A stretch of DNA of 64,000 bases from Syntrophaceae bacterium UBA2188 (GTDB lineage: Bacteria > Desulfobacterota > BSN033 > UBA1163). Where the stretch lies: positions 24,528-88,527 of the forward strand of contig DCVM01000181.1 of the NCBI GenBank assembly GCA_002327985.1. The letters run 5' to 3'. Numbering within the stretch: the stretch's first letter is position 1; every line of letters starts with the position of its first letter. Of the stretch, positions 13,441-64,000 are shown one piece after another. The notes under the pieces are model-generated. The model did not search any database. It saw only the letters and a program-made list of their open reading frames with translations, and had not been told where the DNA came from. The translations under genes were made by a program, and so were the position numbers.

Positions 13441-13441
13441 G

Positions 13442-16400
13442 ATGAGCCAACCACCCAAGGACCCAATTGGAGCGGTATTGGTTGTTGGTGCAGGAATTGG
13501 AGGCATCCAGGCTTCCTTAGACCTGGCGGAGTCGGGGTTTAAAGTCTATCTTTTGGAAAAGAATTTGAGTATTGGCGGGACCATGGCGCAGTTAGATAAG
13601 ACCTTCCCGACCAATGACTGCTCCATGTGTATTATGTCTCCTAAATTGGTGGATGCGGGAAGACACAGGAATATTCAGATCCTCACCAATGCCAAGGTAG
13701 AAAAAGTCGACGGGGTTCCTGGTGATTTTAAAGTTCAAATTCATAAGAAGGCTCGCTATGTCACGATTGAAGACTGCAAGGCATGCGGAGATTGTGTCAA
13801 GGTCTGCCCTATTAAAATTCCCAATGATTACGAACAAGGACTGGTCACCCGCGCCGCCATTTATCAGCTGTTTGCTCAGGCCATGCCGAGTGCTTACGGG
13901 ATTGATAAGAGAGGAATCCCTCCTTGCCGCGCCACCTGCCCTATTCATGTCAATGCTCAAGGGTATATCGCTCTCATTTCAGTCGGTAAGTTTGAAGAGG
14001 CCTTGGCACTGATCAGACAAAAAAATCCATTCCCGGGCATCACGGGCCGGATATGTACCCACCCCTGTGAATCGGTCTGCCGAAGAAAAGACGTCGGTAC
14101 GACTCGAAACCGAGTGGAACGGCCCGTGGCCATTGATGCCCTGAAACGATTCGTCTCGGACTTTGAGAAAGAAGATAAAACTGACCTGACTGTTCCTGAG
14201 GAAAATGGAAAGAAGGTTGCCATCGTGGGTGCAGGTCCTGCAGGCTTGCTGGCTGCCTACGACCTAAGAAAAATGGGCTATGGCGTCACCCTCTTTGAGG
14301 CCCTGCCTGTGCCTGGAGGAATGCTCGCGGTTGGAATTCCAGAATATCGTCTGCCACGGACTGTCCTCAATGAGGAGATCGATTACCTTCTTCGAATGGG
14401 GGTTGAGCTCAAGCTCAATACTCCGATCGGCCCCCATTTTCCCCTTCAAGACCTCAAAGCCAAAGGATATGAGGCCATCTTTATTGCAACGGGTGCCCAC
14501 CAAAGCAGGAAACTTGGACTCGAGGGAGAAGAGTCAAAAGGCATCCTCCATGCTGTCGACTTCCTAAGAAGGGTTGCACTGAGAGAACCGGTCGAGATAG
14601 GTGAAAAAGTAGTGGTGGTGGGAGGCGGGAATGCAGCCATCGATGCCGGCCGAACAGCCTTCCGCCTTAAGGCAAAAGAAGTCACCATCGCCTATCGCCG
14701 AACCCGAGCCGAGATGCCAGCTCAAGAAGAAGAAATCGAAGAGGCAGAGCATGAAGGAATCAAAATCGAATACCTGACTGCCCCAACCCGATTGTTGATC
14801 GAGGGGGGTCAAATAATTGGAATGGAATGCATCCGAATGGCATTGGGTGAAATCGATGAATCGGGTCGGCCTCGGCCAGTTCCCATTTCTGGATCAGAAT
14901 TTAAAATTGAAGCGGATACGATTATCCCAGCCATTAGTCAATCCTCCGACCTGTCTTTCCTCAATCAAAAAGATATTATGAAGACGACTCGGTGGGGGGG
15001 AATTGAAGTAGATCCCCTGACCCTTGAGACCAGCGTGAAAGGTATTTTCGCTGGTGGTGATGTGGTCACCGGTCCCCAGACTTATATCGATGCCATGGGG
15101 GCTGGAAGAAAGGCAGCCATTTCCATTGACCGATATCTGAGAGGAGCAGACCTGAGAGTAGGTCGAGAGGAAGAAGGTCCACAGAAAGACTATATCAAGA
15201 TTGATATCGACGGTGTGGAGTATCGAGAAAGAGCCTCGATGACCGCCATCCCGTTGAATGAAAGAAGAAATTTTAATGAGGTGAACCTCGGGCTGAGAGA
15301 AGAGGATGTGATTCGGGAGGCAGAGCGCTGTCTTCAATGTGGAGGTTGTTCAGAGTGTTTAGAGTGTATCAAAGCCTGTGAGGCAAAGGCCATCGACCAT
15401 GGGATGAAGGATGAACAGTTGGAAATTGAAGTCGGCTCAATCATCCTCTCCCCGGGATTTGATGAGTTCGAACCTTCTTTGAAAAGCGAATACGGCTATG
15501 GACGATTTCCCAACGTCGTTTCAAGCATTGAATTCGAGCGATTCCTTTCAGCCTCTGGACCCTTCAAAGGCCAGGTTCTGAGACCTTCGGATCAGAAACA
15601 CCCCAAAAGTGTGGCATGGATTCAATGTGTGGGATCGAGAGACCCCCATATTGGAAAAGGTTACTGTTCTTCGGTCTGCTGTATGTACGCAACCAAAGAG
15701 GCGGTCATTGCTAAAGAGCATGCCTCGGAAATTGAACCGACGATCTTCTTCATGGATATGAGGGCATATGGAAAGGATTTTGATAAGTACATTGAGAGAG
15801 CAAAAAAGGAATATGGTGTTCGCTATATCCGATCCCGAGTCTCTCATGTCAAAGAGGACCCAAAAACGAATAATCTGACCATCCATTATGAAACCGAAGA
15901 GGGAGAGATGGTTTCTGAGGAGTTTGACCTCGTTGTCCTCTCCGTCGGCCTTGAGCCAACAAGAAGTCATCAGGAGATCGCAAATATTTTTGATATTGAT
16001 CTTAATTCATACGGGTTTGCCGAAACCTCTATCTTCTCCCCTCTTCAAACGTCGAAACCCGGGATCTTTGTTAGCGGCGTCTTTTCCGGCCCGAAAGACG
16101 TTCCTGAAACGGTCGCTCAGGCGAGTGCAGTGGCTGCAGAAGCCTCCTCCCTTCTCGCTAAATCAAAGGGAACATTGGTCGTCGAGAAAGAATATGCTCC
16201 AGAAAAAAATGTGAACTATCAAGGTCCCCGCATTGGTGCTTTCATCTGTCACTGTGGGATCAATATTGGAGGGGTGGTCAATGTCCCAGAGGTCGTCGAA
16301 TATGCACGAACACTCCCTAATGTGGTCCATGTCGAAGGCAACCTCTACACTTGTTCTCAGGACACTCAGGATCAGATGAAAAAGATGATCGAAGAACATC

Positions 16401-17941
16401 AATTGAACCGGGTCGTGGTCGCTTCGTGCACACCTCGAACCCACGAACCCCTGTTCCAGGATACCATCCGTGAGGCAGGGCTTAACCGTTATCTTTTTGA
16501 TATGGCCAATATTCGCGATCAATGTTCATGGGTTCACATGACCCAACCCAAAGAGGCAACAGAAAAAGCAAAGGATCTGGTCAGAATGGCCATCGCCAAA
16601 GCAGCCCTCCTGGACCCTCTTCCCACCCAGACGGTTCAGATGAATCAAAAGGCCCTGGTCATTGGCGGAGGATTGGCGGGAATGACCGCCGCTAAGAAGA
16701 TTGCCCAAGCTGGCTATGAGGTCTATCTGGTTGAAAAAAGATCTGAATTAGGTGGAAAAGCGAGAACGATATACTACACCCTCGATGGCAATAATGTTCA
16801 ATCCCATTTAGAACATCTGATACGAGACGTAGAGAAAAATCCACAAATTCATCTCATGACAAAAACGACCATCGAAAAGATCGATGGATTTGTTGGAAAT
16901 TTCAAAACCAAAGTCCGGAATGGAAACGAAGTGAAAGAACTCGACCACGGAGTCATCATTGTCGCCACTGGGGGAGAGGAATATCGCCCCAAAGAATTCC
17001 TCTATGGCCAAGATTCCCACGTGATCACTCAGAAGGAGTTGGAGGAATGGATTGTCTTCCATCCTAATAAATTAAAGGATCTAAAAAACGTAGCCATGAT
17101 TCAATGTATCGGATCGAGAAATGATGACAGACCTTACTGTAGTCGAATCTGCTGCTCCGAGGCGATCAAAAATGCCTTAAAACTAAAATCCATGAACCCG
17201 AAGCTGAATATTTATATTCTCTATCGTGACATCCGAACCTATGGGTTCAAAGAAGACTATTATGAGAAGGCTCGAGAGGCCGGGATTCTCTTCATCCGTT
17301 ACGAACCAGAGAAGGAACCCCGGCTGGAAGCAGGAGCAGAAGGCCTGGGTGTCGTCGTGCACGAACCCATCCTCCACGATGATCTGCTGATCCAGACCGA
17401 TCTTCTCGTGCTGAGTCCAGGAATCGTCCCCCCCGTCGAAAATGAAACCCTTTCAAAGATGTTGAAAGTTCCCCTCAATCAGGACGGCTTCTTCCTGGAA
17501 GCTCATATGAAACTCAGGCCGGTGGACTTTGCAACAGAGGGAATCTTCCTGGCCGGGCTCGCTCACAGTCCGAAATCGATTGAAGAGAGCATCTCGCAAG
17601 CCAATGCGGCCGTTGCCCGAGCTCTCACTTATCTTTCCAAAACAGAACTTGAGACGATCGGCATCACCTCCGAGGTAGATGAGAGAAAATGTATTGGCTG
17701 TGGTCTCTGCGAAAGTGTCTGCCCTTATCAAGCTATTGAAATCCTGACGAAAAGGACCATCGTAGGAGAAAAACAGGTGGCGCAAATTAACAAAGCTCTT
17801 TGCAAGGGATGCGGCGCTTGCACCGCTTCTTGCCGCTCGGGGTCTATCGATTTGAAAGGATTCACCAACGCAGAGGTGGTTGCCCAGATCACCGAACTGG
17901 CCATAGGATCAATCGGAGAGTCGATGACAGGACAACCATGA
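13442..17941 (+). CDS. hdrL: HdrL-type giant HdrA-like flavoprotein: tandem HdrA modules with an inserted GltD/NfnB-like FAD/NAD(P) domain
   Basis: 1499 aa from ATG 13442 (RBS AACAGGAG). Module 1: GAGIGGIQASLDLAESGFKVYLLEK, DCSMCIM, WIQCVGSRD, CCMYATKEA. Insert: CRATCPIHVNAQGYI, ICTHPCESVCRR, VAIVGAGPAGLLAAYDL. Module 2: LVIGGGLAGMTAAKKIAQAG, MIQCIGSRND, ICCSEAIKNA. C-terminal 2x[4Fe-4S]. Confidence 0.8.
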   Translation: MSQPPKDPIGAVLVVGAGIGGIQASLDLAESGFKVYLLEKNLSIGGTMAQLDKTFPTNDCSMCIMSPKLVDAGRHRNIQILTNAKVEKVDGVPGDFKVQIHKKARYVTIEDCKACGDCVKVCPIKIPNDYEQGLVTRAAIYQLFAQAMPSAYGIDKRGIPPCRATCPIHVNAQGYIALISVGKFEEALALIRQKNPFPGITGRICTHPCESVCRRKDVGTTRNRVERPVAIDALKRFVSDFEKEDKTDLTVPEENGKKVAIVGAGPAGLLAAYDLRKMGYGVTLFEALPVPGGMLAVGIPEYRLPRTVLNEEIDYLLRMGVELKLNTPIGPHFPLQDLKAKGYEAIFIATGAHQSRKLGLEGEESKGILHAVDFLRRVALREPVEIGEKVVVVGGGNAAIDAGRTAFRLKAKEVTIAYRRTRAEMPAQEEEIEEAEHEGIKIEYLTAPTRLLIEGGQIIGMECIRMALGEIDESGRPRPVPISGSEFKIEADTIIPAISQSSDLSFLNQKDIMKTTRWGGIEVDPLTLETSVKGIFAGGDVVTGPQTYIDAMGAGRKAAISIDRYLRGADLRVGREEEGPQKDYIKIDIDGVEYRERASMTAIPLNERRNFNEVNLGLREEDVIREAERCLQCGGCSECLECIKACEAKAIDHGMKDEQLEIEVGSIILSPGFDEFEPSLKSEYGYGRFPNVVSSIEFERFLSASGPFKGQVLRPSDQKHPKSVAWIQCVGSRDPHIGKGYCSSVCCMYATKEAVIAKEHASEIEPTIFFMDMRAYGKDFDKYIERAKKEYGVRYIRSRVSHVKEDPKTNNLTIHYETEEGEMVSEEFDLVVLSVGLEPTRSHQEIANIFDIDLNSYGFAETSIFSPLQTSKPGIFVSGVFSGPKDVPETVAQASAVAAEASSLLAKSKGTLVVEKEYAPEKNVNYQGPRIGAFICHCGINIGGVVNVPEVVEYARTLPNVVHVEGNLYTCSQDTQDQMKKMIEEHQLNRVVVASCTPRTHEPLFQDTIREAGLNRYLFDMANIRDQCSWVHMTQPKEATEKAKDLVRMAIAKAALLDPLPTQTVQMNQKALVIGGGLAGMTAAKKIAQAGYEVYLVEKRSELGGKARTIYYTLDGNNVQSHLEHLIRDVEKNPQIHLMTKTTIEKIDGFVGNFKTKVRNGNEVKELDHGVIIVATGGEEYRPKEFLYGQDSHVITQKELEEWIVFHPNKLKDLKNVAMIQCIGSRNDDRPYCSRICCSEAIKNALKLKSMNPKLNIYILYRDIRTYGFKEDYYEKAREAGILFIRYEPEKEPRLEAGAEGLGVVVHEPILHDDLLIQTDLLVLSPGIVPPVENETLSKMLKVPLNQDGFFLEAHMKLRPVDFATEGIFLAGLAHSPKSIEESISQANAAVARALTYLSKTELETIGITSEVDERKCIGCGLCESVCPYQAIEILTKRTIVGEKQVAQINKALCKGCGACTASCRSGSIDLKGFTNAEVVAQITELAIGSIGESMTGQP

Positions 17942-18465: not shown

Positions 18466-19428
18466 ATGGAAGAGAGATCGAAGGCAATTCAAGACAGAAT
18501 TAGAGAAAAAGCCAGAGAGCTTCTATTAAACAAAACGGTGGATCTCATCATCGGTTTTGGTGAAGGTTCCTTTCCCCTTCGAACCACACCCAGATTCATT
18601 CGAGATCCTGAAAAAACGGACCGTTTGATCTGGAACTCTTTTTGCGAAAACAACCTGGCCACTTACCTTCATAAATTCAACAAGTTTAAGGTGGGGATCG
18701 TGGTGAAAGGATGTGATGCCCGTTCTGTCATTGCACTTTCTCTCGAAAAAAGGTTTAAACCTGATCAACTGTTTTTAATGGGAGTCCCTTGCCAGAGGAT
18801 GGTGGATCGAAGAAAGGTGAAGCGGGCGGTAAAAGGAGAAATCCTTCGGGCTTTTGAGCAAGGAGACCAGATCGTTGTGGAGGGAGAAGAGTTTAAAACC
18901 ATTTTGAAAAGGGATGACTTTTTTTATCCCTCCTGCCAGGTTTGCATTCATCGAAATCCTATTCAGGCGGACGTGTTAGTCGGAGATCCTGTAGAAGAAT
19001 CTCCTCTTATAGAAATACATCCCGAGATCCAAGAATTTGCAAAGAAATCCGCGGAAGAACGGTGGAAGTATTTTGAGAAAGAGTCCAGCCGTTGTATCCG
19101 TTGCTACGCTTGTCGAGAAGCCTGTCCCATGTGCTATTGCGCGGAATGTTTTGTGGACAGTTCTAACCCAAAGTGGATTGAAAAGAGCTTATCTCCTTCA
19201 GACCTTGAGTTCTATCACATCGTAAGGGCCTATCATCAAACAGGGAGGTGCACGGGTTGCGGTGCCTGTGAAAGAGCCTGTCCTATGGAGATTCGTCTCA
19301 CTTACCTCACGCAGAAATTGAATAGGGACGTAAAAGAACTTTTCAACTATGAAACAGGAATCGATACCAAGACGCTCCCTCCCCTGTCGACTTATGACAT
19401 GGAGGATAAACAGGATTTCATCAAATGA
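18466..19428 (+). CDS. flxC: FlxC-like Fe-S protein (sulfhydrogenase/F420-hydrogenase beta-like, 2x[4Fe-4S])
   Basis: CIRCYACREACPMCYC and CTGCGACERACPM. Start is uncertain: TTG at 18442 or ATG at 18466. Confidence 0.6.
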   Translation: MEERSKAIQDRIREKARELLLNKTVDLIIGFGEGSFPLRTTPRFIRDPEKTDRLIWNSFCENNLATYLHKFNKFKVGIVVKGCDARSVIALSLEKRFKPDQLFLMGVPCQRMVDRRKVKRAVKGEILRAFEQGDQIVVEGEEFKTILKRDDFFYPSCQVCIHRNPIQADVLVGDPVEESPLIEIHPEIQEFAKKSAEERWKYFEKESSRCIRCYACREACPMCYCAECFVDSSNPKWIEKSLSPSDLEFYHIVRAYHQTGRCTGCGACERACPMEIRLTYLTQKLNRDVKELFNYETGIDTKTLPPLSTYDMEDKQDFIK

Positions 19429-20486
19429 CATTGAAGCTGGACAAAAAAGATTTGAAGGCTTTTTTGGAAACCCTGATGGATGAATACGATCTCTTTGCGC
19501 CCGTGCAATTGGCCGAGGGAGTTTCCATATATAAAAAGATTGACCGCCCCGATGATGTGGACCTCTCAACCTCTAACCCTCAAAAACCTGCGAAGGAGGT
19601 ATTTTTCCCCCAATCTGAGACCATGTTTCGGTATGAAAAAGCCGGGAAACAACAACAGATGACTTCCACAGAAGGGGTAGAAAAAAAGAGGGTGATCCTG
19701 GGCGCCAGACCCTGCGATATCCAGGCGGTCTCCATCTTGGATGACGTCTTTTTAGGGAAAGAGTACAAGGATGTTTATTATGGGAATAAAAGAAATGGGA
19801 CAACCCTCATCGGCTTAGCCTGTAATCATCCCCTCTCCACTTGCTTCTGTCCCTCTGCGGGGGGAGGTCCTTTCCTTCGAAAGGGTTCGGACATTTTCCT
19901 CATCGATTTGGGCGAAACATTTATCGTTGAGCTTCTGACTGAAAAAGGAATGACTTTTCAAAAGAACAAATTCTTTAAAGAAGCGAATACAAAAGAGATC
20001 AGTTTGGCCCAAGAGATTGAGGAAAAAGCATCCAAAAAAGCTGATGCTTCCGTTCCGATTGAGGGAATTGATAGAAGATCGGACCTAATGATGGAGAGCC
20101 CATTCTGGGACCGGATGCATGAGAAATGTATAGGCTGTGGAGTGTGCACCTTTCTTTGCCCCACATGCCATTGTTTTGATATTGTCGATGAGGCCTTGAC
20201 GAACAAGGGGCAACGGGTGAGAAACTGGGATTCCTGCCTATTCCCTTTATATTCCCAGGAGACTTCTGGCCATAATCCACGACCCACAGGCCGTGAACGA
20301 ACTCGACAAAGATTAATGCACAAGTTTAATTATTTCCCGAAAAACTTTGGGCGGGTCGCTTGTGTGGGTTGCGGTCGATGTATCCTTTACTGCCCGGTTA
20401 ATTTTGATATCCGCCAGGCAATCAACTTGACGTCTGCTAAAGGCATAAGAAAAGTGAAGGATCAGGTGGACTTAACGAGGCGATGA
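19425..20486 (+). CDS. flxB: FlxB-like Fe-S protein (HydB/AsrA-like, 2x[4Fe-4S])
   Basis: CIGCGVCTFLCPTCHCFD and CVGCGRCILYCPV; 353 aa; ATGA overlaps with both neighbours. Confidence 0.6.
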   Translation: MTLKLDKKDLKAFLETLMDEYDLFAPVQLAEGVSIYKKIDRPDDVDLSTSNPQKPAKEVFFPQSETMFRYEKAGKQQQMTSTEGVEKKRVILGARPCDIQAVSILDDVFLGKEYKDVYYGNKRNGTTLIGLACNHPLSTCFCPSAGGGPFLRKGSDIFLIDLGETFIVELLTEKGMTFQKNKFFKEANTKEISLAQEIEEKASKKADASVPIEGIDRRSDLMMESPFWDRMHEKCIGCGVCTFLCPTCHCFDIVDEALTNKGQRVRNWDSCLFPLYSQETSGHNPRPTGRERTRQRLMHKFNYFPKNFGRVACVGCGRCILYCPVNFDIRQAINLTSAKGIRKVKDQVDLTRR

Positions 20487-52794: not shown

Positions 52795-54252
52795 ATGCCT
52801 TTAGGAATCAGAAAGTTATTCCTCATTACCTTTAAAATGAATCTTTGGCACCTGTTATGCATTCATTGTTTGGCATCTATGAAGATAAACTCCTCCTCCC
52901 TTTGCTCCAATCGGAACTGCTATCCCCTTTTTGTTTTCTTTCTGATTATCCTTATTTCCAATCCCTGTTTCAGCCAGATGCCCAGCGAATCCCCTGATCA
53001 AATCTGGAAAGTCGGGGATCACCGTTGGACGGCTGAAGAAGAGGATCGGTTTGGTAAATGGGTCGATGAGACGATTACGGAAGATTTTTTCATGCGTTAT
53101 AAAATCCCCACGGATTGTGCTGATGTCCCTTATGCGGTCAGATGGATATATGCCCGGATCGCACATCTTCCCGCTGCCGCTACGACCAAGGACGGCAAAC
53201 TGATCGGCCACTGGTCTAAGAACTGGAAACATCTTCCAACCCATTCGGAATGGCACGAGGATAAACGATTTCGTGCCGCCCTTCTCTTTCTCATTTCAGA
53301 GACGTGGACAGGAACCCTCCCCCGCGACACATATCCCATTCGCATTTCCCCTGATTCGGTCACGCCAGGAACCCTGCTTGCGATGGATAAATCCCATGTC
53401 GCCATCATCGGCCACGTCTGCTTCAACGGAAGCCAGTCCCATCCCATTCAGACCTGGGAATCAATGCTTCCGGTGAAGATTCGAAAACTGATTTTAAGGG
53501 AATTTTTTTCTCCCAAACCGGAATCTACACACCCTTTAGGTCTGGTGAAATTCCGATGGCCGATTTTTGAAAAGGGGGAATGGAAGTATCTTGCTTCCAA
53601 AGAACACCCCTTCTATTCTGAAGAGCAATACCACCCAACTTTTTATAAGAGGTATGCAGATTTTGTTGCGGCAGTAGCCAAAAGGATCGATCCAACAGAA
53701 TATGAACCCATGGAGAAGGTGGCAAAGGTGATTGAAACAACGACCCGCTTTCTTAAAGATCGAGTTCCCATTGTTCTGTCAGGACACCAGCAGTGTATCA
53801 GGAGGGGATGCACAGAAGGTTCGGATCTATGGGAAATCTACAATACCCTGAGCCATGACGGAATGATCATCCTCTTGATGGATCATCTTTCGCGTATTAT
53901 TGAATCCAGCTATCTTGACAAAGAAATGATTAAAGAGATCATGGAGTCGATTTCGATCAACATCGCAAAAAATCGTTCGGTCACATTCTATGAGGTCTAT
54001 CAGAACTGTTCCTGGTTTTCCCCTCACCCGAATGACTCGATAGAAGCCCGCTGGGGATTAAAAAAGTGTGAGAGGATCCTTTCAGAAATCCAGACCGCCA
54101 AAGACTGCATTGCTTTTATTGAAAGAATTTATGGGAAAAAAGACCCTAAGTATGCTGACTTCTCGATCCGGCAACAGCAGCAAATCGTCCGGAGACTCCA
54201 TGAGGAGTTGATGAAATCCGAATGTCATCTCGCCGCTACAGTTCATCGGTAG
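52795..54252 (+). CDS. hypothetical secreted protein, possible transglutaminase-like Cys-His fold
   Basis: Hydrophobic N-terminus (the start may be the MKINSS Met at 52879); PTDCADVPYAVRWIYARIAHLPA resembles the transglutaminase-core G-C-x-x-A ... R ... IPAR region, followed by SHVAIIGH. Confidence 0.3.
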   Translation: MPLGIRKLFLITFKMNLWHLLCIHCLASMKINSSSLCSNRNCYPLFVFFLIILISNPCFSQMPSESPDQIWKVGDHRWTAEEEDRFGKWVDETITEDFFMRYKIPTDCADVPYAVRWIYARIAHLPAAATTKDGKLIGHWSKNWKHLPTHSEWHEDKRFRAALLFLISETWTGTLPRDTYPIRISPDSVTPGTLLAMDKSHVAIIGHVCFNGSQSHPIQTWESMLPVKIRKLILREFFSPKPESTHPLGLVKFRWPIFEKGEWKYLASKEHPFYSEEQYHPTFYKRYADFVAAVAKRIDPTEYEPMEKVAKVIETTTRFLKDRVPIVLSGHQQCIRRGCTEGSDLWEIYNTLSHDGMIILLMDHLSRIIESSYLDKEMIKEIMESISINIAKNRSVTFYEVYQNCSWFSPHPNDSIEARWGLKKCERILSEIQTAKDCIAFIERIYGKKDPKYADFSIRQQQQIVRRLHEELMKSECHLAATVHR

Positions 54253-54397: not shown

Positions 54398-55072
54398 TTA
54401 TGGAAAAACCATCTTTTCGAGGGCTTTGACTCGAGCTTCCAAGGCATTCATTTTTTTCTCCAAATCGGCATAAGAGAATTTGATCATCGCACCCAATTCC
54501 TCTTTGACCTCATTCAACCCTCCTTTCACTATTCCATTGAGTGCCTTGACCTCTTCAACCGCTTTTCCAATACGCTCATCCAGTCTTTCTAATCCTGTCC
54601 TCACCCCATCCATATCCGCTTTTATTTCGTCTCTTGAATGGGCAAGTTTGGATAATCCTTCCTCCTTCATCACCAGAAAATTTGAATGCATCTCCTGTTT
54701 TGATTGAATGACGGCTGCACAAGTCTCTTCTTTGATCTTCTGGAGGGATGACTCCAATATTTGGATAGGTTGATAGGAAGAGGACTGTATCTCCTGTTTC
54801 AATTTTTCGATTCCATCCTTAAAATCATCTTGGAGGGGACCGATTTCCTCCTTTGTCTCTCTTCTCAATTTTTCCAACTCCTCTTTGATCTCCCCTATTC
54901 CTCCGAGGATCTGATTTCTATTTTCTTCTTTTAATTGACGAAAGTTCGACTTCATCTCCTGTCTCAATTTCTCTATATCCTCTTTCGAAGCCAATCCCAA
55001 TAATCTCTTATCCAACATTTCTTGGTCCATTGAGTTTTTTACCCCCTTCAGAAAGTAGCCTTTGAATATCAT
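54398..55072 (-). CDS. coiled-coil protein of unknown function
   Basis: 224 aa, repeated heptad-rich EEL/KEE segments (IEKLRQEMKSNFRQLKEE, IKEELEKLRRETKEE, IEKLKQEIQ). Confidence 0.4.
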   Translation of the reverse strand: MIFKGYFLKGVKNSMDQEMLDKRLLGLASKEDIEKLRQEMKSNFRQLKEENRNQILGGIGEIKEELEKLRRETKEEIGPLQDDFKDGIEKLKQEIQSSSYQPIQILESSLQKIKEETCAAVIQSKQEMHSNFLVMKEEGLSKLAHSRDEIKADMDGVRTGLERLDERIGKAVEEVKALNGIVKGGLNEVKEELGAMIKFSYADLEKKMNALEARVKALEKMVFP

Positions 55073-55375: not shown

Positions 55376-58300
55376 ATGACATCTATGAAAATTACCCGAA
55401 GAACATTTTTGAAAGTTTCGGGAGCGACAGCCGCCGGGACAATAATGGGTGGCCTGGGGTTCGATCTGTCTCCGGCTGAAGTTTATGCCCAGGAACTTAG
55501 AATCAAAGGGGCGAAGGAAACAACCTCCATCTGCTGTTACTGTTCGGTGGGCTGCGGGATTATCGTCCATACTGATGCCAAAGGAAAAGTAATCAACGCC
55601 GAGGGAGACCCTGATCATCCTATCAGCGAAGGGGCTCTCTGTGCAAAAGGGGCATCGAGTTACCAGATTGCGGTTAACCCACATCGACTTCAAAAAGTAC
55701 TTTACAGGGCCCCCTACAGCAGCACCTGGAAAGAGGTAAAATGGGAATGGGCCTTAGAGAAAATCGCAGCGAATATTAAGAAGAGTAGAGATGCCAGCTT
55801 CATGGAGAAAAATGCAGCAGGTCAGGTGGTCAACCGAACCAACGGCATTGCGTCCGTGGGAAGTGCGGCCATGGATAATGAGGAATGCTGGCTCTACTCC
55901 AAAATGTTGAGGGCCTTAGGGCTCATTTATGTTGAGCACCAGGCCCGTATCTGACACAGCGCCACGGTAGCGGCTCTGGCAGAGTCGTTCGGACGCGGTG
56001 CAATGACCAATCATTATATCGATTTTAGAAATGCCGATGTAATTTTAAACATGGGCAGTAATGTCGCCGAAAACCACCCTGTCTCCTTTAAATGGATCCA
56101 GGCAGCCAAGGACAAAGGGGCGCTCTTCATTCATGTGGATCCAAGATTTACCCGCACCTCGACAAAAGCCGATATATTCGTAAGGCTTCGTTCAGGAACA
56201 GATATTGCCTTCCTGGGTGGCATGATCAAATATCTCATTGACAACAACATGTATGATGAATTCTACGTCAAGAACTATACCAATGCCTCCTTTATCGTAA
56301 ATCCAAAATATGGCTTCAATGACGGTCTTTTCTCAGGCTACGACTCAACCAAACGGAGTTATGATAAATCAACCTGGGCATTGGAAAAAGATGAGCAGGG
56401 AATTCCGAAAAGGGACATGACCCTCCAAGATCCACGCTGTGTCTTCCAGCTTCTGAAGAATCATTATTCCCGATATGCATTGGATAAAGTTTCTCAGATC
56501 ACTGGAACCCCCACAGCAGATCTTGAAAAAGTCTATAAAGCCTATGGCTCAACCTATGCCCCTGACAAAGCAGGGACTGTATTATATGCCATGGGGTGGA
56601 CGCAGCATACCGTAGGGGTTCAGAACATTCGAACCATGGCTATCATTCAAGATCTTCTCGGTAATATGGGAATTGCCGGGGGTGGAATCAATGCTTTGCG
56701 TGGGGAATCAAATGTTCAGGGTTCAACCGATGCGGGTCTTCTGTACCACATTTGGCCAGCTTATTTACCTACTCCGCGGTCTCCTTGGGCAACTCTTGCG
56801 GATTATAATAAGAACAACACTCCGGTTTCAAAGGATCCTCGAAGTGTCAACTGGTGGAAAAACCGTCCTAAATATGTTGCCAGCTTTTTGAAATCGATGT
56901 TCGGAGAGAAGGCAACCAAAGAGAATGATTTTGGATATGCTTGGATGCCCAAGCTCGAACCAGGCCAGGATGCTTCCTGGTTGAATCTCTTTGACGAAAT
57001 GTATAAGGGGGCCTTCACGGGTTTCTTTGCATGGGGAATGAATCCTGCTTGTTCAAGTGCCCATGCCGGAAAAGTTCGCCAGGCATTGACAAAACTTGAC
57101 TGGATGGTCAATGTCAATGTCTTTGACAGCGAAACAGGTTCTTTCTGGAAGGGCCCTGGCATGAACCCAAAGAAGATCAAGACAGAGGTCTTCCAATTGC
57201 CCTGTGCAGCCTTCTTGGAAAAAGAAGGAAGCATCAGCAATAGTGGCCGATGGATGCAGTGGCGATATAAAGCGGCCAATCCTCCTGGAGTGGCCCTCCC
57301 CGATGGCGATATTATATATGAACTGTTTAAAAAGGTTCGAGCCCTTTATGAGAAGGATAAGGGAACCTTGCCAGAACCGATTTTAAACTTAAAGTGGGAT
57401 TATGAAACCGGTGGCCATTTTGATATCCATAAGGTAGCCAAAGAGATCAATGGCTATGATCTCACCACCGGCAAATTGATGGCCAATTTTGTTGGCTTGA
57501 AGGATGACGGAACCACCTCTTGCGGCAACTGGCTCTATTCTGCCAGTTATACCGAAGCGGGTAACATGGCTGCACGCAGAAAGAAGACCGATCCAACTGG
57601 ACTGGGCCTCTATCCGGAATGGTCATGGTGCTGGCCACTGAATCGAAGGATCATCTATAACCGAGCCTCTGTTGATTTGGATGGCAAACCTCGTGATCCA
57701 AAACGACCACTTCTTAAATGGGATGCCGAGGGAAAGAAATGGATAGGGGATGTGCCTGACAATGCTGTTCCACCTATGGGAACAACTGGAGCCTACCCAT
57801 TTATTATGAAGCCAGACGGAGTGTCTTCACTCTTCGGCCCGGGCTTAAATGATGGACCCTTCCCCGAGCACTATGAGCCTCTGGAATGTCCGATCGAAAA
57901 GAATCTGATGTCCGGTCAGAGGATTAACCCGGCCATCAAAGTCTTCGAAGGAGGGCTTGATGCGTTTGCCACCTGTGATCCGAAGTATCCTTTTGTTTGC
58001 AGTACCTATCGGGTTACGGAACACTGGCAGACAGGAGTTCTCACTCGATGGCTGCCATGGCTCATTGAGGCCGAGCCACAGATGTTTTGTGAGATAAGCA
58101 TTGAGCTTGCCAAATTAAGAGGAATTAAAAACGGTGATAGGGTGATCGTTCAGACCCAACGAGGCAAATTAGAAGCGGTGGCCATTGTCACCTTCCGTTT
58201 AAAACCTTTTAATGTCGCTGGCCAAACGATTCATCAAATAGGAATACCATGGCATTTTGGCTGGCTCCATCCAAAGGATGGTGGAGAAAGTGCAAATTTA

Positions 58301-58420
58301 CTGACACCGACCGTTGGCGATCCCAATACCATGATCCCTGAATCAAAGGCTTTCATGGCCAACGTCAGTAAACTGACTAAACAACCAGCCCAACCAGCCA
58401 AAAAAACAACAAAAAGTTAA
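55376..58420 (+). CDS. fdnG: formate dehydrogenase catalytic subunit, selenocysteine-containing, Tat-exported
   Basis: Tat signal RRTFLKVSGATAAG. The two track ORFs 55376-55954 and 56003-58420 are in the same frame and are joined by TGA 55952-55954. The junction reads EHQARI-U-HSATVAALAESFGRGAMTN, the canonical Sec site of molybdopterin formate dehydrogenases; 1014 aa total. Confidence 0.9.
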
Positions 58421-58434
58421 AGGAGGTGACATAA

Positions 58435-59169
58435 ATGGCAGATAAATCCTTTTTCATAGATACAACAAAATGTACGGCTTGTCGGGGGTGCCAGATTGCC
58501 TGCAAGCAGTGGAATAAAAACCCTGGGACGAAAACCCTGCAGCAAGGAAATCACCAGAATCCCGCTGATCTTTCGGCCTCAACATTTAAATTGGTGAGGT
58601 TTAATGAGGTGGAGGTGCCAGGAGGAGAACCCCAATGGTTTTTCTTTCCTGATCAGTGCAGGCACTGTATGTCTCCTCCCTGTAAAGAAGTGGCGGATGA
58701 AAAAGCCAAAGGAGCGATAATCCACGATGAAAAGACCGGGGCGGTTATCTTTAACCCAAAAGTAAAGATAAAACCGGGGGATTTTAAAGAAGTCCGTGAA
58801 GCCTGTCCCTATGATATCCCAAGAATCTCTGGTGCGGGAATCATGGCAAAATGCACCATGTGTTTTGATCGCATCAATGAAGGGATGCTTCCCGCCTGTG
58901 TGAAGACTTGCCCAACTGGAGCCATGAATTTCGGAGATCGAAAAGAGATCCTGGAGAAGGCCAACAAAAGACTTGAAGAGGTAAAAGGAACCTATAAAGA
59001 CGCGATGTTGGCGAACACCGATGATGTTAGGGTGATTTTCCTTATTGTGGATGATCCCAAAAAGTATCACAAATTTGCAGTAGCAGATAATACGATTGGG
59101 ATCACGAGAAAAATGGCGCTAAAGCGTCTTTTTCAACCTCTTACCAGTTTGCGTCATATGATCGGATAA
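58435..59169 (+). CDS. fdnH: formate dehydrogenase Fe-S subunit (4x[4Fe-4S] ferredoxin-like), without a C-terminal TM anchor
   Basis: CTACRGCQIACKQWN, CRHCMSPPC, CPYDIP, CTMCFDRINEGMLPACVKTCPTGA. Confidence 0.8.
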   Translation: MADKSFFIDTTKCTACRGCQIACKQWNKNPGTKTLQQGNHQNPADLSASTFKLVRFNEVEVPGGEPQWFFFPDQCRHCMSPPCKEVADEKAKGAIIHDEKTGAVIFNPKVKIKPGDFKEVREACPYDIPRISGAGIMAKCTMCFDRINEGMLPACVKTCPTGAMNFGDRKEILEKANKRLEEVKGTYKDAMLANTDDVRVIFLIVDDPKKYHKFAVADNTIGITRKMALKRLFQPLTSLRHMIG

Positions 59170-59382: not shown

Positions 59383-60234
59383 TTGGAAAAGCTAAAAAGA
59401 AGAATTCAACGGATTAAAAAGAAAAGACCCGGCTATGGAGAGATTTTGGATTTCTACCAGAGGGTCAAAGAGGCACAGGAAAAAATAAAAGTTTCTTTAA
59501 AAATGGGTCCCATAAAACTCAAAAGAGAATGGAAGGAGCTCCTGGCCAAAGAAGGTTTTTCATTGATCCAAAAAGAAGATTTCCCATTGGATAGGGAGGC
59601 CTCCATCAAACTCTTTGAAACCCTCTGCCAGATTGGAAAAAATGCAAATCCCCATATGGCAAAGCAAGTGAGAAAAATTGAAGAGGCTATCAGAAATAAA
59701 AAAATAGACCTGAAGGAAATATTAAAATCGGGAGTCAAGGAACAAAAAATTGTTCAGTTTGCTGACGAATTTAAATTGGATAAAAAAGTGTTCTTATTTT
59801 TAATTCAGAACAGTACAAAGCCTTCTGTGGAGGCCGGAATGGAACAACTCCGTAGTGAACTGGACCCTGAAACCTGGCTGAAGGGCTATTGCCCTGTCTG
59901 CAGCTCCCTCCCACATCTCAGTCTGTTAAGGGAAGAAGTTGGAAGAAGATATATGCTCTGTTCCTTTTGTGGATACTCATGGAGAATGGATCGATTAATT
60001 TGCGCATTTTGCAATAATACAGAGCAACCCTCTCTGCAGTATTTTTGTGGTGAGGGAGAGGAGGCCTATCGTATTGACCTGTGCGATAAATGTCACCAGT
60101 ATATCAAGACCATTGACCTTAGAACCCTTGGAGAATCTGACCCCCTCTTGGAGGATCTCGCCACCTTCCACCTCGATCTGATCGCCTCCGAAAAAGGCTA
60201 TAAAAGACCAGTTCCCAACCCCTGGATGACCTAA
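59383..60234 (+). CDS. fdhE: formate dehydrogenase accessory protein FdhE
   Basis: C-terminal Cys pairs CPVCSS ... CSFCGYSW ... CAFCNN ... CDKCHQY, the FdhE rubredoxin-like architecture; 283 aa. Confidence 0.75.
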   Translation: MEKLKRRIQRIKKKRPGYGEILDFYQRVKEAQEKIKVSLKMGPIKLKREWKELLAKEGFSLIQKEDFPLDREASIKLFETLCQIGKNANPHMAKQVRKIEEAIRNKKIDLKEILKSGVKEQKIVQFADEFKLDKKVFLFLIQNSTKPSVEAGMEQLRSELDPETWLKGYCPVCSSLPHLSLLREEVGRRYMLCSFCGYSWRMDRLICAFCNNTEQPSLQYFCGEGEEAYRIDLCDKCHQYIKTIDLRTLGESDPLLEDLATFHLDLIASEKGYKRPVPNPWMT

Positions 60235-60263: not shown

Positions 60264-60382
60264 TTCGCCCTTGTTTTCAGATGGCAGATAAGGTATAAAT
60301 ACTTGATAGTGTTCGTAAATGGTGATTGTGGAAAATGTATTTCACTAACACTATTTGGTATCAGTAAACACCGAAGGGCGAA
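60264..60382 (+). promoter_or_regulatory. 5' leader with a long-range inverted repeat that can sequester the RBS of the downstream candidate selenoprotein gene
   Basis: ttcgcccttg (60264-60273) is complementary to cgaagggcgaa (60372-60382), which contains the GAAGGG Shine-Dalgarno placed 7 nt before ATG 60386; about 98 nt of AT-rich sequence lies between. Confidence 0.3.
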
Positions 60383-60385
60383 GAC

Positions 60386-61522
60386 ATGAAAGTAAAAGGT
60401 TTGATACTAGGCATTTTGTCTCTGGGATTTTTCTTGCACGTCTGGGCTTTTCCCTCCCCTGCCCAACAATGGCCAAAGACCCTTACCCTTCTCTATAGCA
60501 ATAATATCAATGGTGAAATTGAGCCCTGTCCCACCTGAGGGGAAAAGAATCGAATTGGCGGTCTGGCCAGGAGAGGAGCATGGGTGAAGGATCTTCATGA
60601 GAGTGAAAAAGGGATACTTATTTTGGATTCAGGTGATCTCCTTTTTAAAAAATATCTTAATCCCCTTTCCGAAAATGAATTAAAGGGAGTGAGGGAGAAG
60701 GCCCATCTGATTATCGAGGGTTTCAATTTAACGGGTTATGATGCCATAGGCATTGGCGACGATGATTTAACCCTGGGAAAAGAATTTCTATTGGAAAATT
60801 TAAAAAAGGCTAATTTCCCATTTCTATCGTCCAATCTCCTTGACGAGGGGTCTGGGAATATTCTTTTTCAATCCTCTTTGATCAAAGAAATCAATGGGTT
60901 TCGAATCGGAATTTTTAGTCTTCTCTCGCCCGACTTATTTACAGGTCCTTCTGATCCCCGTAGGAAGGGATTGATTGTCCGGTCACCGATCGAAACAGCC
61001 CAGGCCATGATCAAAGAATTAAAGCCCAAAACCGATCTGATCATCCTCTTGAGCCATCTTGGCTATGCCAAGGATATCGATCTGGCCCAGACGGTCCAAG
61101 GAATTAATATTATCATCGGGGGCCATAACGGAGTCCATTTCGTCATTCCTCCTGTTATCAAGGATACCCTCATTCTTCAAATGGCTTCTCGAGGGATGTT
61201 CGGAGGAAGGCTTACCCTTATCTTCTATAATAATGAACCCATCTTTTACAATTCAGCAATCAAACTATCCTTGGAAAACAATCTTAACAATTTTAACCAA
61301 CGCTTAAAGGCCAAGGACACAACAGAGGCTGAAAAGGCTCAGTGGCGAAAAGCAAAAGAAGAGACCGAACGAACCCTGAACCAACTTCATGGGAAGAACA
61401 ATTTTATAAATCATATCATCCCATTGCAAGAACAGATGAAAGAGCACCCGGATATTAAAAGGCTTGTCGAAAACTTCAAGGGTCAATTTCCAGGAGCAAA
61501 AACGATCTCTTCTCCACAATAA
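60386..61522 (+). CDS. candidate selenoprotein: secreted 5'-nucleotidase-like (metallophosphoesterase-fold) protein with a CxxU motif and an in-frame TGA at 60536-60538
   Basis: ATG with RBS and signal peptide MKVKGLILGILSLGFFLHVWAFPSPAQQ. Same frame as track ORF 60584-61522. Read-through gives ... LTLLYSNNINGEIEPCPT-U-GEKNRIGGLARRGAWVKDLHESEKGILILDSGDLLF ... GIGDDDL ... LSHLG ... GGHNG. Both sides of the TGA align to one 5'-nucleotidase N-domain (LTILHTNDHHG ... GGxARLA ... LLLDAGD ... GNHEFD ... SHxG ... GGHSH). Confidence 0.5.
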
Positions 61523-61527
61523 TAAAG

Positions 61528-63312
61528 ATGACAAATATTGATCTCATTCTTCTTCATCCCCCTACCCTATATGACTTCAGGAATCGGCCTGGGATCCATG
61601 GCCCGATCAGCGATGTTGTTCCCTCCACCCCGATCTTTGAAATGTATCCCATTGGGTTTGCCAGCCTCTCAGAATATTTAGAGCGGCACGGTCTCAAAGT
61701 CAGGATCATCAATGTGGCCATGAAGATGCTCAAGGATGAGAAATTCGATGTGGAGCGGCTCATCCAGAAAAATAAGCCTATTGCTTACGGGATCGATCTC
61801 CACTGGATGGCCCACGTTCAAGGGGCCTTAGCGCTTGCTGAGATCATTAAGCGGTTTCATCCAGAAATCCCTGTCATCTTGGGTGGGTTTTCAGCGTCCT
61901 ATTACCATGAGGAGATTCTCCGTCAATATCCTTTTATCGATTTTGTAGTGAGAGGAGATTCGACAGAGAAGCCGCTGCTTCAACTTCTTCAGACGATCAA
62001 AAAAGGGGGAGATTTTAAAAATATCCCTAATCTGACCTATCGGAATGAAAAGAATGAAATTCAGGTCAATGCCCTCACCCACGTGCCGGAAAACCTAAAT
62101 GAGATGACGATCGATTACCGTCACATCATGAAGAAGGTGGTGAGGTATGCGGACCCCACAGGTTACCAACCTTTTATGGATTGGTACACCTATCCTGTGA
62201 CAGCTGTCTTCACCTGCCGCGGATGTCTCTATTCCTGTAAGACTTGCGGAGGATCCGCACAGACCTTTCGAACGATGGCGAATCGCAGGAAACCGGCCTA
62301 TCGGGATCCCAAATTATTGGCCCAGGATGTCTTCAACATCTCGGATCACCTCCACGCACCGGTGATGATCATCGGCGATATCTTTCAACCTGGGGAAGAA
62401 TATGGGTACACCTTTCTTCAGGAATTGAAGAAGCGACCGATCACCAACCATATTGCTTTTGAATTTTTTGTTCCTCCTTCCAGGGATCAACTTAAAAGGA
62501 TTGCTCAGTCGATTTCCAACTTCAATATCGAGATTTCCCCCGAATCACACGACGAAGAAGTCCGTAAAGCCTTTGGAAGGCCTTACAACAATCAATCATT
62601 GGAGAGGATGATCGAAGAGGCCATTGATCTCGGCTCGAAGCGGGTCGATCTCTTCTTCATGACCGGTCTCCCGAAGCAAACCTATCAATCCGTCCTGGAT
62701 ACAGTAGAATATTGTCGGACTCTTTTAGAACGATTTCGTTCCTACCCTAAACTCTTCCCCTTCATCTCGCCTCTCGCCCCCTTCTTGGATCCGGGGAGTA
62801 TAGTTTTTGAAGCACCAGAAAAATATGGATACCGCTTACTTTATCGGACCGTGGAGGAACATCGTCAAGCCTTGCTGGCCCCCAGTTGGAAATACATCCT
62901 CAACTACGAAACAGAATGGATGAACCGGGACGAGATCGTCTATAGCACCTATGAAGCGGGAAAGAGGCTCAATCGTTTGAAAGCCGAATTCGGGCTGATC
63001 GATCCGAAGACGGCAGAATCGGTTGAGATCCGTCTTGAAGGGGCTCTAAAGGTGATGAAAGAGATTGACCGAATCATGGTCCTTCCAGACCCAAAGGAGA
63101 GGGAAAAGGCGTTGGAGTCCATTTCAAGTGGCCTTCTCTCCCTCCATCACTACAGCATGTCTACGATTTGCGAGAAAAAAGAACTGGAATGGCCTACTCG
63201 ATTTATTCGAATGAATTTCATCAAGATTCTTAAAACACTCCTGATGAGGAGGAAGCCCAATGTCTCTATCCCTTCGTCAACAGGTGCTCCGCAAAATACC
63301 CAGTGTGGATGA
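61528..63312 (+). CDS. B12-binding domain / radical SAM protein
   Basis: N-terminal B12-binding-like domain; radical SAM cluster motif CLYSCKTC within FTCRGCLYSCKTCGG; 594 aa; 5 nt after the previous gene. Confidence 0.75.
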   Translation: MTNIDLILLHPPTLYDFRNRPGIHGPISDVVPSTPIFEMYPIGFASLSEYLERHGLKVRIINVAMKMLKDEKFDVERLIQKNKPIAYGIDLHWMAHVQGALALAEIIKRFHPEIPVILGGFSASYYHEEILRQYPFIDFVVRGDSTEKPLLQLLQTIKKGGDFKNIPNLTYRNEKNEIQVNALTHVPENLNEMTIDYRHIMKKVVRYADPTGYQPFMDWYTYPVTAVFTCRGCLYSCKTCGGSAQTFRTMANRRKPAYRDPKLLAQDVFNISDHLHAPVMIIGDIFQPGEEYGYTFLQELKKRPITNHIAFEFFVPPSRDQLKRIAQSISNFNIEISPESHDEEVRKAFGRPYNNQSLERMIEEAIDLGSKRVDLFFMTGLPKQTYQSVLDTVEYCRTLLERFRSYPKLFPFISPLAPFLDPGSIVFEAPEKYGYRLLYRTVEEHRQALLAPSWKYILNYETEWMNRDEIVYSTYEAGKRLNRLKAEFGLIDPKTAESVEIRLEGALKVMKEIDRIMVLPDPKEREKALESISSGLLSLHHYSMSTICEKKELEWPTRFIRMNFIKILKTLLMRRKPNVSIPSSTGAPQNTQCG

Positions 63313-64000
63313 AATTCTTTCAAGACCAGAAATCGCTGAACTCTTAAAGGTCCATCCCCGTAACGTTGTGGTCGAGGCCATTCGAAAGGGAATAGGAAGA
63401 CTGCGCCAAGAAATCCTCCAAAAAGAGGAAGGGCCTCAATCAGGGGATGACCTCTTTTCTTTTGAGCACTTGGTTCCCCTTTTCCAGAAAGAGATTGACC
63501 TTCAGATTCAACCTCGACTCCGCCGCGTTATCAATGCAACCGGAGTGATCATTCACACCAACCTGGGAAGAGCCCCGCTCCATCCTTCTGCGATTCAACA
63601 CCTCGTCGAGGTTTCCAAAACTTATTCCAACTTAGAATATGACATTGAATTAGGTGAACGGGGAAACCGATATGCGCATGTGGAAGAGATCCTCTGCCGC
63701 CTATCCGGTGCAGAATCAGCCTTGGTGGTAAACAATAATGCGGGGGCCGTCTTGCTTGTCATCAATACCCTTGCAGAAGGCAAGGAGGTGATCGTCTCAA
63801 GAGGAGAACTGGTCGAGATAGGAGGAGCTTTCCGGATCCCTGATGTGATGAGGCGTAGCGGTGCCTTGCTCAGAGAGGTCGGAACAACCAACCGTACCCA
63901 CCTCAATGATTATCAGAAGGCGATTGGTCCTCAGACCGGCCTATTGCTCAAGGTTCACACCAGTAACTTCAGAGTGATGGGATTTTCCTCAGAAGTCTCT
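63260..64000 (+). CDS. selA: L-seryl-tRNA(Sec) selenium transferase, N-terminal part (continues beyond window)
   Basis: MSLSLRQQVLRKIPSVDEIL ... RRVINATGVIIHTNLGRAPL ... canonical SelA N-domain; overlaps the rSAM 3' end by 53 nt in another frame. Confidence 0.8.
   Translation, partial: MSLSLRQQVLRKIPSVDEILSRPEIAELLKVHPRNVVVEAIRKGIGRLRQEILQKEEGPQSGDDLFSFEHLVPLFQKEIDLQIQPRLRRVINATGVIIHTNLGRAPLHPSAIQHLVEVSKTYSNLEYDIELGERGNRYAHVEEILCRLSGAESALVVNNNAGAVLLVINTLAEGKEVIVSRGELVEIGGAFRIPDVMRRSGALLREVGTTNRTHLNDYQKAIGPQTGLLLKVHTSNFRVMGFSSEVS

Follow-up and report, generated by a model that had tools for sequence, protein, structure and literature searches.

A conserved promoter-like element precedes a UshA-like selenoprotein gene, a TIGR04190 radical SAM gene and selA in an uncultured Thermodesulfobacteriota lineage

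Results

Three genes with tight junctions on one strand

We analysed a stretch of 64,000 nucleotides from Syntrophaceae bacterium UBA2188 (contig DCVM01000181.1; hereafter the window), the end of which (60270–64000) carries a gene for a UshA-like selenoprotein, a gene for a B12-binding radical S-adenosylmethionine (SAM) enzyme and the first part of selA, the gene for L-seryl-tRNA(Sec) selenium transferase. An original prediction, made from the letters alone, had described these genes as an operon placed directly after fdnGH-fdhE and had suggested that the radical SAM enzyme assists the selenoprotein. The coordinates of the three same-strand genes were confirmed: the stop codon of the UshA-like gene lies 5 nt before the ATG of the radical SAM gene, and the radical SAM and selA reading frames overlap by 53 nt. 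The features of the locus, with the selenocysteine (Sec) codon and the candidate selenocysteine insertion sequence (SECIS), are as follows.

60270–60299, plus strand: promoter/operator-like element CTTGTTTT-N16-TATAAA, recognised by its conservation in related loci
60386–61522, plus strand: UshA-like selenoprotein gene, 378 amino acids, frame read through the in-frame TGA at 60536–60538 to the stop TAA at 61520–61522
60536–60538, plus strand: Sec codon TGA in the motif PCPTU (C48-P-T-U51), conserved in related loci
60555–60570, plus strand: SECIS-like apical hairpin UUGGC-GGUCUG-GCCAG, beginning 16 nt past the UGA
61528–63312, plus strand: gene of the TIGR04190 B12-binding radical SAM enzyme, 594 amino acids, ATG start
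63246–63254, plus strand: Shine-Dalgarno sequence GAGGAGGAA of selA, inside the 3' end of the radical SAM gene
63260–64000, plus strand: selA, ATG start, 247 N-terminal codons, leaving the window

The radical SAM protein belongs to TIGR04190, with 668 bits against a cut-off of 500, and carries an N-terminal B12-binding domain (PF02310) and a Radical_SAM domain (PF04055). Its CX3CX2C motif reads CLYSCKTC, the Cys columns aligning with family-invariant ones; no sequence relative was found in the PDB. The 247-residue selA fragment likewise falls within TIGR00474 (345 bits, cut-off 267.9) and matches the Pfam families Se-cys_synth_N and SelA. On a longer copy of the same contig, L001, selA is 477 amino acids long. 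In another NCBI copy (GCA_002402385.1; L002, 10945–12730), the radical SAM gene is split into products of 163 and 402 amino acids, and the formate dehydrogenase gene fdnG aligns as two pieces across a frame shift near its Sec codon. Because the radical SAM gene is intact in the window, ENA and Logan copies, both splits are probably assembly errors.

The first gene encodes a selenoprotein

To collect relatives, we scanned one genome per GTDB species and obtained 30 loci, all in metagenome-assembled genomes (MAGs) of Thermodesulfobacteriota, with UshA-like homologs 47–77% identical. Of these, 29 cover the Sec site, and every one has an in-frame TGA at the homologous position, each time within the motif P-C-P-(T/S/G)-U (CxxU) and with coding conserved on either side (LLYSNNINGEIxPCPxU...GGLARRGxW). 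No Cys form was seen at the Sec position among these 29 loci. In one metagenomic relative the Sec codon is TTA (Leu; L004 10133–10135, L005 724–726) with the SECIS-like hairpin and the operon intact, which could mean that Sec was lost recently, that the base is a sequencing variant or that the gene is dying.

The SECIS-like hairpin is nearly invariant at the nucleotide level, wobble positions included (26 aligned loci). Consistent with this, synonymous-codon entropy reaches its minimum within the gene at the G-G-L-A codons (0.36 bits; mean, 1.08 bits; computed from a 30-sequence codon alignment with 153 conserved columns). The folding energy downstream of the UGA was no better than that of shuffles in single-sequence folding (z from -0.04 to -1.07), and RNAalifold recovered only 3 invariant pairs and no covariation in the hairpin region. 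Thus, the SECIS call rests on synonymous-site constraint. The GGUCU loop presumably resembles that of the E. coli fdhF SECIS. The gene shows what is generally expected of a bacterial selenoprotein gene: a conserved in-frame UGA, flanked by conserved coding sequence and followed, 16–34 nt downstream, by a stem-loop whose apical loop contains G/U. Public gene callers split it into products of 50 and 312 amino acids, and almost all of the best-matching among 1114 database homologs are annotated as 312-residue truncations that start past the TGA. Judged by these sequence features, the first gene does encode an exported selenoprotein, as originally predicted.

A heme-less CxxU sister subfamily of known UshA-like selenoproteins

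The UshA-like protein has an N-terminal Sec-type (secretory) signal peptide, a 5'-nucleotidase-like N-terminal domain and a helical C-terminal tail; it lacks the 5'-nucleotidase C domain, a heme domain and any CxxCH motif. No Pfam family matched it, Metallophos included, and its best PDB match was the 5'-nucleotidase 2z1a (E=1e-21), in an alignment that continues through the Sec site. Here the equivalents of D41 and H43 are N40 and N42, and those of N116, H117 and D120 are D125, D126 and T129, so that D becomes N, H becomes N and NHE becomes DDD at the metal and catalytic motifs. The equivalents of D84, H217 and H252 are retained. We take the metal-binding and catalytic roles of these residues to be those seen in UshA structures. 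Because such residues are replaced, canonical phosphoesterase chemistry seems unlikely for this protein.

UshA-like selenoproteins (COG0737, CxU) have been catalogued since 2008 (Zhang and Gladyshev, PMC2398784), and a 2026 review (PMC13188914) lists the families NF041198 (CxU) and NF049981 (CxxU, 'GenBank annotated'). Against NF041198, the window protein scored 235.8 bits in a single stretch spanning U and five other members of its clade 239–262 bits, all below the cut-off of 275, which the control L037 passed with 353 bits. The UshA/5'-nucleotidase-like N-terminal domain, the in-frame UGA and the downstream SECIS agree with this family. The P-C-G-U (CxU) motif, present as PCG-U in L037, is replaced by CxxU in all 29 loci, and the match ends at profile position ~377–383 of 519, leaving out the part (~380–519) that completes the family architecture. 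NF049981 gave 69–77 bits over six clade members (69 for the window protein; cut-off 140), and its CxxU motif is present as C48-P-T-U51. Given the sub-cut-off scores, the missing C-terminal part of the profile and the true membership of L037 with its cytochrome c554 domain, the profile comparison places the window protein in a heme-less CxxU sister subfamily of the catalogued UshA-like selenoproteins. The 'novel Sec-protein' of the original prediction is therefore a relative of families already on record.

Three relatives deserve mention. L037 (1362–2735) is a bona fide PCGU UshA-like selenoprotein followed by a C-terminal cytochrome c554-type domain (Pfam Cytochrome_C554) with several CxxCH motifs; by its domain composition, the UshA-like module of the sister family is wired to hemes. 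L022 (3426–4553, same MAG as L030) is a second intact CxxU Sec paralog that follows DsbA-like, DUF1684 and DsbD-like genes, neighbours that hint at a thiol-disulfide redox context for the UshA-like family; it has no radical SAM gene beside it and no conserved promoter motif. L014 carries, 8.8 kb downstream of its intact UshA-like gene, a decayed and partial second copy (18900–19604) that lacks the N-terminus and has a frameshift after ~190 amino acids.

Synteny of the trio matches that of its housekeeping neighbours

The order UshA-like gene, radical SAM gene, selA is kept in 28 of the 29 testable species-level MAGs of one uncultured Thermodesulfobacteriota lineage, and with it the junction layout. 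The radical SAM gene comes next after the UshA-like gene in 28 of 30 loci, the exceptions being L025, where the contig ends, and the paralog L022; the adjacency thus holds for 28/28 primary UshA-like copies. selA is present after the radical SAM gene in all 27 loci that reach that far. Within the clade, the radical SAM proteins are 74–91% identical. Neighbourhood conservation in related genomes, named by the original prediction as a check, was thus borne out.

Does this conservation signal selection on the trio as a unit? On L001, selA is followed by genes for a rluD-like pseudouridine synthase, yfiH, a PF1765-like protein, tatA, HPPK and a YHS protein, and the order rluD-yfiH-PF1765-tatA-HPPK is identical in every related locus extending far enough. 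Synteny in the clade extends across more than 8 kb of housekeeping genes that plainly have nothing to do with one another. We therefore rejected trio conservation as a sign of selection on the unit: since the downstream block is equally syntenic, the trio shows what shared ancestry alone would give, and the conserved neighbourhood is weak evidence of co-function.

The same downstream genes occupy the place after selA where selB and selC had been sought, and neither adjoins selA on L001 or in any related locus. In the window, ARAGORN detected no tRNA and no selC, and neither inspection of the large open reading frames (ORFs) nor tblastn found a homolog of selB, selD, MenA, UbiE, geranylgeranyl reductase (GGR) or ArsA.

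A conserved element marks the probable start of the unit

When the upstream regions were aligned, the promoter-like element emerged as the sole island of near-identity between flanks that are otherwise unalignable. It combines a -35-like TTGTTT (60271–60276), a 17-nt spacer and a -10-like TATAAA (60294–60299), and lies ~90 nt before the start codon of the UshA-like gene. Within the window this pattern has a single occurrence, against 0 expected in shuffles. It also occurs once per related locus, always just 5' of the UshA-like gene whatever sits further upstream (exact in 23 GTDB loci and near-exact in 4). A generic sigma-70 and terminator scan gave counts within shuffle expectation and missed the conserved element because its -35 matches at only 3 of 6 positions. 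From its conservation we infer that the element functions as a promoter; as it is unique and fixed just before the UshA-like gene, the unit would start at 60270–60299 and not at fdnG.

The generic scan found no terminator-like site at the 61522/61528 and 63260/63312 junctions, in line with the operon originally proposed. Across the clade, the UshA-like and radical SAM genes are at most 10 nt apart in 25 of 28 loci, the usual gap being 5 or 2 nt, and selA overlaps the radical SAM gene in 23 of 27 loci and lies 112–346 nt downstream in the other 4. No Shine-Dalgarno-like sequence precedes the radical SAM ATG in any clade locus, whereas GAGGAGGAA or a one-base variant stands 5–6 nt before the selA ATG wherever selA overlaps the radical SAM gene. 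Because the radical SAM gene lacks such a site and selA has a strong one, the former is probably translated by coupling to the selenoprotein gene (termination-reinitiation), and the latter's site suggests initiation independent of upstream translation. One strand, tight junctions, no internal terminator, an upstream promoter-like element and a conserved order together give the locus the sequence features of an operon.

How far does the unit extend? Past selA no terminator-like site was found, and between selA and rluD the loci have a spacer of 5 to 466 nt. With no terminator and a spacer that can be as short as 5 nt, the transcription unit probably extends past selA into rluD-yfiH and further. 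In eight loci (L011, L015–L017, L019, L026, L029 and L036), this spacer is expanded by GC-rich hairpin insertions resembling repetitive extragenic palindromes (e.g., CCCCTCCC...GGGAGGGG).

Elsewhere, TIGR04190 genes keep menaquinone and isoprenoid company

At E<1e-30, an exhaustive search with the radical SAM protein returned 499 clusters (50% identity), the closest of their representatives being only 53% identical. Members found by profile search come from Latescibacterota, Zixibacteria, Anaerolineae, Actinomycetota, Nitrososphaerales and Hydrothermarchaeota and are 48–55% identical to the window protein over the full length of the latter. Since TIGR04190 is a model of the equivalog type and this level of identity spans bacteria and archaea, one conserved function is suggested for the family. 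We sampled gene contexts outside the clade at 9 loci and in 4 fused ORFs, all singletons; a metagenome scan with the nearest outgroup gave 3 loci. The contexts are listed below.

L052, 2968–8913: FdnH-like, NrfD, FdhE, MobA, MenA, long-chain polyprenyl diphosphate synthase, TatA, small radical SAM, TIGR04190, TatA, TatC
L054, 1381–6774 (Actinomycetota): GGR-like, polyprenyl synthase, hypothetical, radical SAM, polyprenyl synthase
L045, 5717–9650 (Nitrososphaerales archaeon): GGR, radical SAM, ArsA-like ATPase
L049, 5812–10493 (bacterial metagenome contig): GGR, ArsA, radical SAM fused to TatC
L047, 5258–8791: MenA near the radical SAM gene
L044: small radical SAM gene overlapping the TIGR04190 start
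L046 and L053: MoxR, radical SAM, DUF58
L048: no informative neighbour
Fusions to the TIGR04190 radical SAM enzyme: UbiE/MenG (two), TatC (one), PGA_cap (one)

MenA thus recurs twice (above the TIGR00751 cut-off), long-chain polyprenyl diphosphate synthases three times and GGR-family genes three times, whereas no UshA-like, metallophosphoesterase or selA gene stands beside TIGR04190 in any of the 9 contexts. Read most simply, these neighbours point to a polyprenyl quinone or lipid as the substrate of TIGR04190 enzymes. A literature search on TIGR04190, its namesake Ta0216 and menaquinone-linked B12-binding radical SAM enzymes found no published function. The proposed co-occurrence of the CxxU protein with the radical SAM enzyme therefore stands within the clade and fails outside it (0/9 contexts), and no adjacent radical SAM gene accompanies L022 or L037, as would be expected of a dedicated maturase. 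With menaquinone/isoprenoid, Tat or MoxR genes as its usual neighbours, the enzyme fits poorly with the helper role first assigned to it.

Two features of these contexts stand apart. The ArsA-like ATPases of L045 (8703–9650) and L049 (6925–7863) are 61% identical across archaeon and bacterium, which suggests a GGR-ArsA-radical SAM module shared or transferred across domains. On the unrelated contigs L044 (6091–7014) and L052 (5094–6008), small PTO1314-like radical SAM proteins of ~305 amino acids are 69% identical and their genes overlap the TIGR04190 start; this small enzyme, absent from the window's clade, may be a conserved TIGR04190 partner.

Discussion

A probable co-expression unit specific to one lineage

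What holds the three genes together? We put the probability at roughly 0.55 that they form a lineage-specific co-expression unit whose members most likely share no biochemical pathway. The conserved promoter-like element would drive the unit. Its first product would be a Sec-exported selenoprotein of UshA/5'-nucleotidase fold, with UGA-51 decoded through the small SECIS hairpin; this protein probably serves in thiol/selenol redox chemistry or metal binding in the periplasm, with its dimetal site remodelled, and not as a phosphoesterase. The radical SAM enzyme would be made by termination-reinitiation from the selenoprotein gene, and selA would be translated from its own strong Shine-Dalgarno sequence to provide Sec-tRNA for both the UshA-like protein and FdnG. 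The radical SAM enzyme of the window is probably isofunctional with the rest of TIGR04190, its substrate a polyprenyl quinone or lipid to judge by the family's neighbours elsewhere, and would be an orthologue merely placed between a lineage-specific selenoprotein gene and selA.

Several observations weigh against this reading: (i) the adjacency of the UshA-like and radical SAM genes has no exception among primary copies; (ii) apparent translational coupling is a type of link often seen between functional partners, and in L044 and L052 the radical SAM gene is coupled likewise to a small radical SAM partner; (iii) the family contexts cover radical SAM proteins at most 55% or at least 74% identical and none between, so that the closest relatives outside the clade may have a UshA-like gene as well; (iv) the menaquinone/isoprenoid assignment draws on 9 contexts and 4 singleton fusions; and (v) the AlphaFold2 model of a full-length homolog, P0003, was poor (mean pLDDT, the predicted local distance difference test score, of 50, with the N-terminal 125 residues below 50).

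Alternatively, the radical SAM enzyme could modify the selenoprotein before export, for instance by methylation near Cys-x-x-Sec, or make its cofactor. Protein-methylating B12-dependent radical SAM enzymes are known, such as Mmp10 and the MCR glutamine methyltransferase. The position of the radical SAM gene behind every primary UshA-like copy, mostly 2–5 nt past the stop and with no Shine-Dalgarno sequence of its own, speaks for such a maturase, as does a singleton ORF (P0246) in which a TIGR04190 enzyme is fused through a transmembrane linker to a PGA_cap domain, which we take to belong to the metallophosphoesterase superfamily. We nonetheless consider this explanation unlikely. The fusion is a single sequence; the equally conserved housekeeping block means that the trio is not singled out; no UshA-like or metallophosphoesterase gene occurs in the 9 contexts of other lineages; 48–55% identity across bacteria and archaea under an equivalog model suggests one conserved function; and no radical SAM gene adjoins either L022, the Sec paralog, or L037, the PCGU relative.

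Could the layout serve as a selenium-availability switch? If the radical SAM gene is coupled to the selenoprotein gene, its synthesis would need Sec insertion at UGA-51, and by polarity such gating could reach part of selA and downstream genes; this idea is compatible with the co-expression unit that we favour. The UGA comes early (codon 51 of 378), the radical SAM gene lacks a Shine-Dalgarno sequence and lies 2–5 nt past the stop in nearly all species, and the strong conservation of the promoter/operator-like element suggests that the unit is regulated. A precedent would be the SECIS-linked control of selAB in E. coli, reportedly the work of Thanbichler and Bock in 2002. Still, many operons have tight junctions that carry no regulatory meaning, selA is preceded by a strong Shine-Dalgarno sequence of its own and sits 112–346 nt beyond the radical SAM gene in 4 loci, and the Leu-for-Sec variant L004 retains the layout. 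Selenium gating thus appears rather unlikely.

Distinctly unlikely, in our estimate, is a combination of the two, in which the TIGR04190 enzyme was recruited in this lineage as a true partner of the selenoprotein, either modifying the pre-protein or making a modified quinone or lipid for use by the periplasmic selenoprotein, and in which synthesis of the enzyme is gated by Sec insertion. If this were so, the supply of selenium would turn on selA and a B12-dependent radical modification at the same time.

The formate dehydrogenase genes lie outside the unit

Upstream of the promoter-like element, the window carries the following neighbours.

55376–58420, plus strand: fdnG, with a Tat signal and its own Sec TGA at 55952–55954
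58435–59169, plus strand: fdnH, assigned by translation and family match
59383–60234, plus strand: fdhE, assigned by translation and family match

A stable SECIS hairpin (55952–56000, z=-2.3) comes after the Sec codon of fdnG, with a loop unlike that of the UshA-like gene; Rfam, applied to all of the window at gathering threshold, returned nothing, and so did not recover the fdnG SECIS either. Between a CAP-domain gene and fdnG lie two ORFs without Pfam match, one of 485 amino acids (52795–54252, plus strand), seen among related loci only in L010, and one of 224 amino acids (54398–55072, minus strand) that is charged and coiled-coil-like. Further away (13430–17941), a 1503-amino-acid fused oxidoreductase combines several FAD/NAD(P)-binding and 4Fe-4S domains in GltD/HdrA style.

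The original prediction took this neighbourhood as a hint that the UshA-like selenoprotein serves the FdnGH formate dehydrogenase as a periplasmic redox partner or in an accessory role. Both proteins are periplasmic by their signals (Tat for FdnG, Sec for the UshA-like protein), fdnGH-fdhE lies directly upstream in the window, and a full-length fdhE is found upstream in 14 related loci. However, only a fdhE fragment remains in 3 loci and none in 9, 4 of which carry 10 kb of upstream sequence with no fdh gene there; in 4 of the 14 loci with full-length fdhE, insertions of 1.5–4 kb separate it from the UshA-like gene. The conserved promoter-like element also stands between fdhE and the UshA-like gene, and CxxU is the only electron-transfer motif of the UshA-like protein, which lacks heme and Fe-S motifs. 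We therefore regard the formate dehydrogenase link as highly improbable. Finally, that there is no selenoprotein at all, the 50-codon (60386–60538) and 312-codon (60584–61522) ORFs being separate or the first non-coding, as the two products of gene callers and the 312-residue length listed for most database homologs would have it, is scarcely credible with the frame open across the TGA in 29/29 species, GEKNRxGGLARRGAW highly conserved between TGA and GTG, NCBIfam and PDB alignments crossing the site in one stretch, a SECIS-like hairpin under synonymous constraint, and selA and a Sec-containing fdnG present.

Implications

We claim no new principle here, and what we propose for the functions of the UshA-like protein and the radical SAM enzyme is read from sequence. 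Nevertheless, the locus exposes an annotation gap: a widespread, obligately Sec-containing and heme-less CxxU UshA-like subfamily, with more than 1000 database homologs, falls just short of both NCBIfam cut-offs. These homologs occur in Thermodesulfobacteriota of peat, soil, sediment and groundwater and are routinely labelled as a 312-residue '5'-nucleotidase' fragment. The placement of selA is unusual as well, behind a selenoprotein gene and a coupled radical SAM gene, away from selB/selC and under a conserved promoter/operator-like element, which makes the clade's selA locus a concrete place to test selenium-dependent regulation. Lastly, the uncharacterised TIGR04190 family gains a testable menaquinone/isoprenoid gene context.

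Comparison with known systems

How does the window compare with characterised or catalogued systems? With NF041198, the best-scoring model for clade members (236–262 bits), the window protein shares the N-terminal 5'-nucleotidase-like fold, Cys and Sec in the loop after a degenerate 'NDxHG', the signal peptide and GGLARR after Sec. It differs in that members of the window's clade carry CPTU (CxxU) and end at ~378–438 amino acids with a helical tail, whereas L037 carries CGU (CxU) and a cytochrome c554 domain. NF049981 has the same CxxU spacing and UshA-like N-terminus, and its first ~90 profile positions align; yet most clade members match only the N-terminal third of this 262-position profile. 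The 5'-nucleotidase/UshA/SoxB proteins (PDB 2z1a, 1ush and 2wdc) share a homologous N-terminal domain (85–101 bits for the SoxB model), but the window protein lacks their C-terminal substrate-binding domain and has N, N, D, D and T at the metal and catalytic equivalents.

The radical SAM enzyme matches TIGR04190 (namesake Ta0216 of Thermoplasma acidophilum) over its full length, with the same domain order and CX3CX2C motif; only in the window's clade does a UshA-like selenoprotein gene precede and selA follow it. The archaeal lipid enzymes Grs (glycerol dialkyl glycerol tetraether ring synthase), Gmm/Cgm/Pgm (methylases) and Ted (desaturase) are class-B radical SAM enzymes that bind B12 and have isoprenoid-chain substrates (PMC11214058; bioRxiv 10.1101/2025.10.20.683597). 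The likeness to them, by description and not by sequence, is a lead that comes from an archaeal TIGR04190 gene beside a GGR-family gene. Anaerobic sulfatase-maturating enzymes (anSMEs), an analogue of the maturase considered above, act on sulfatases that are exported afterwards; there, as here, the gene of a cytoplasmic radical SAM enzyme lies beside that of an exported hydrolase-fold protein with a reactive Cys-type residue. anSMEs are SPASM-domain enzymes that do not bind B12, and for TIGR04190 such a pairing is seen in the window's clade only.

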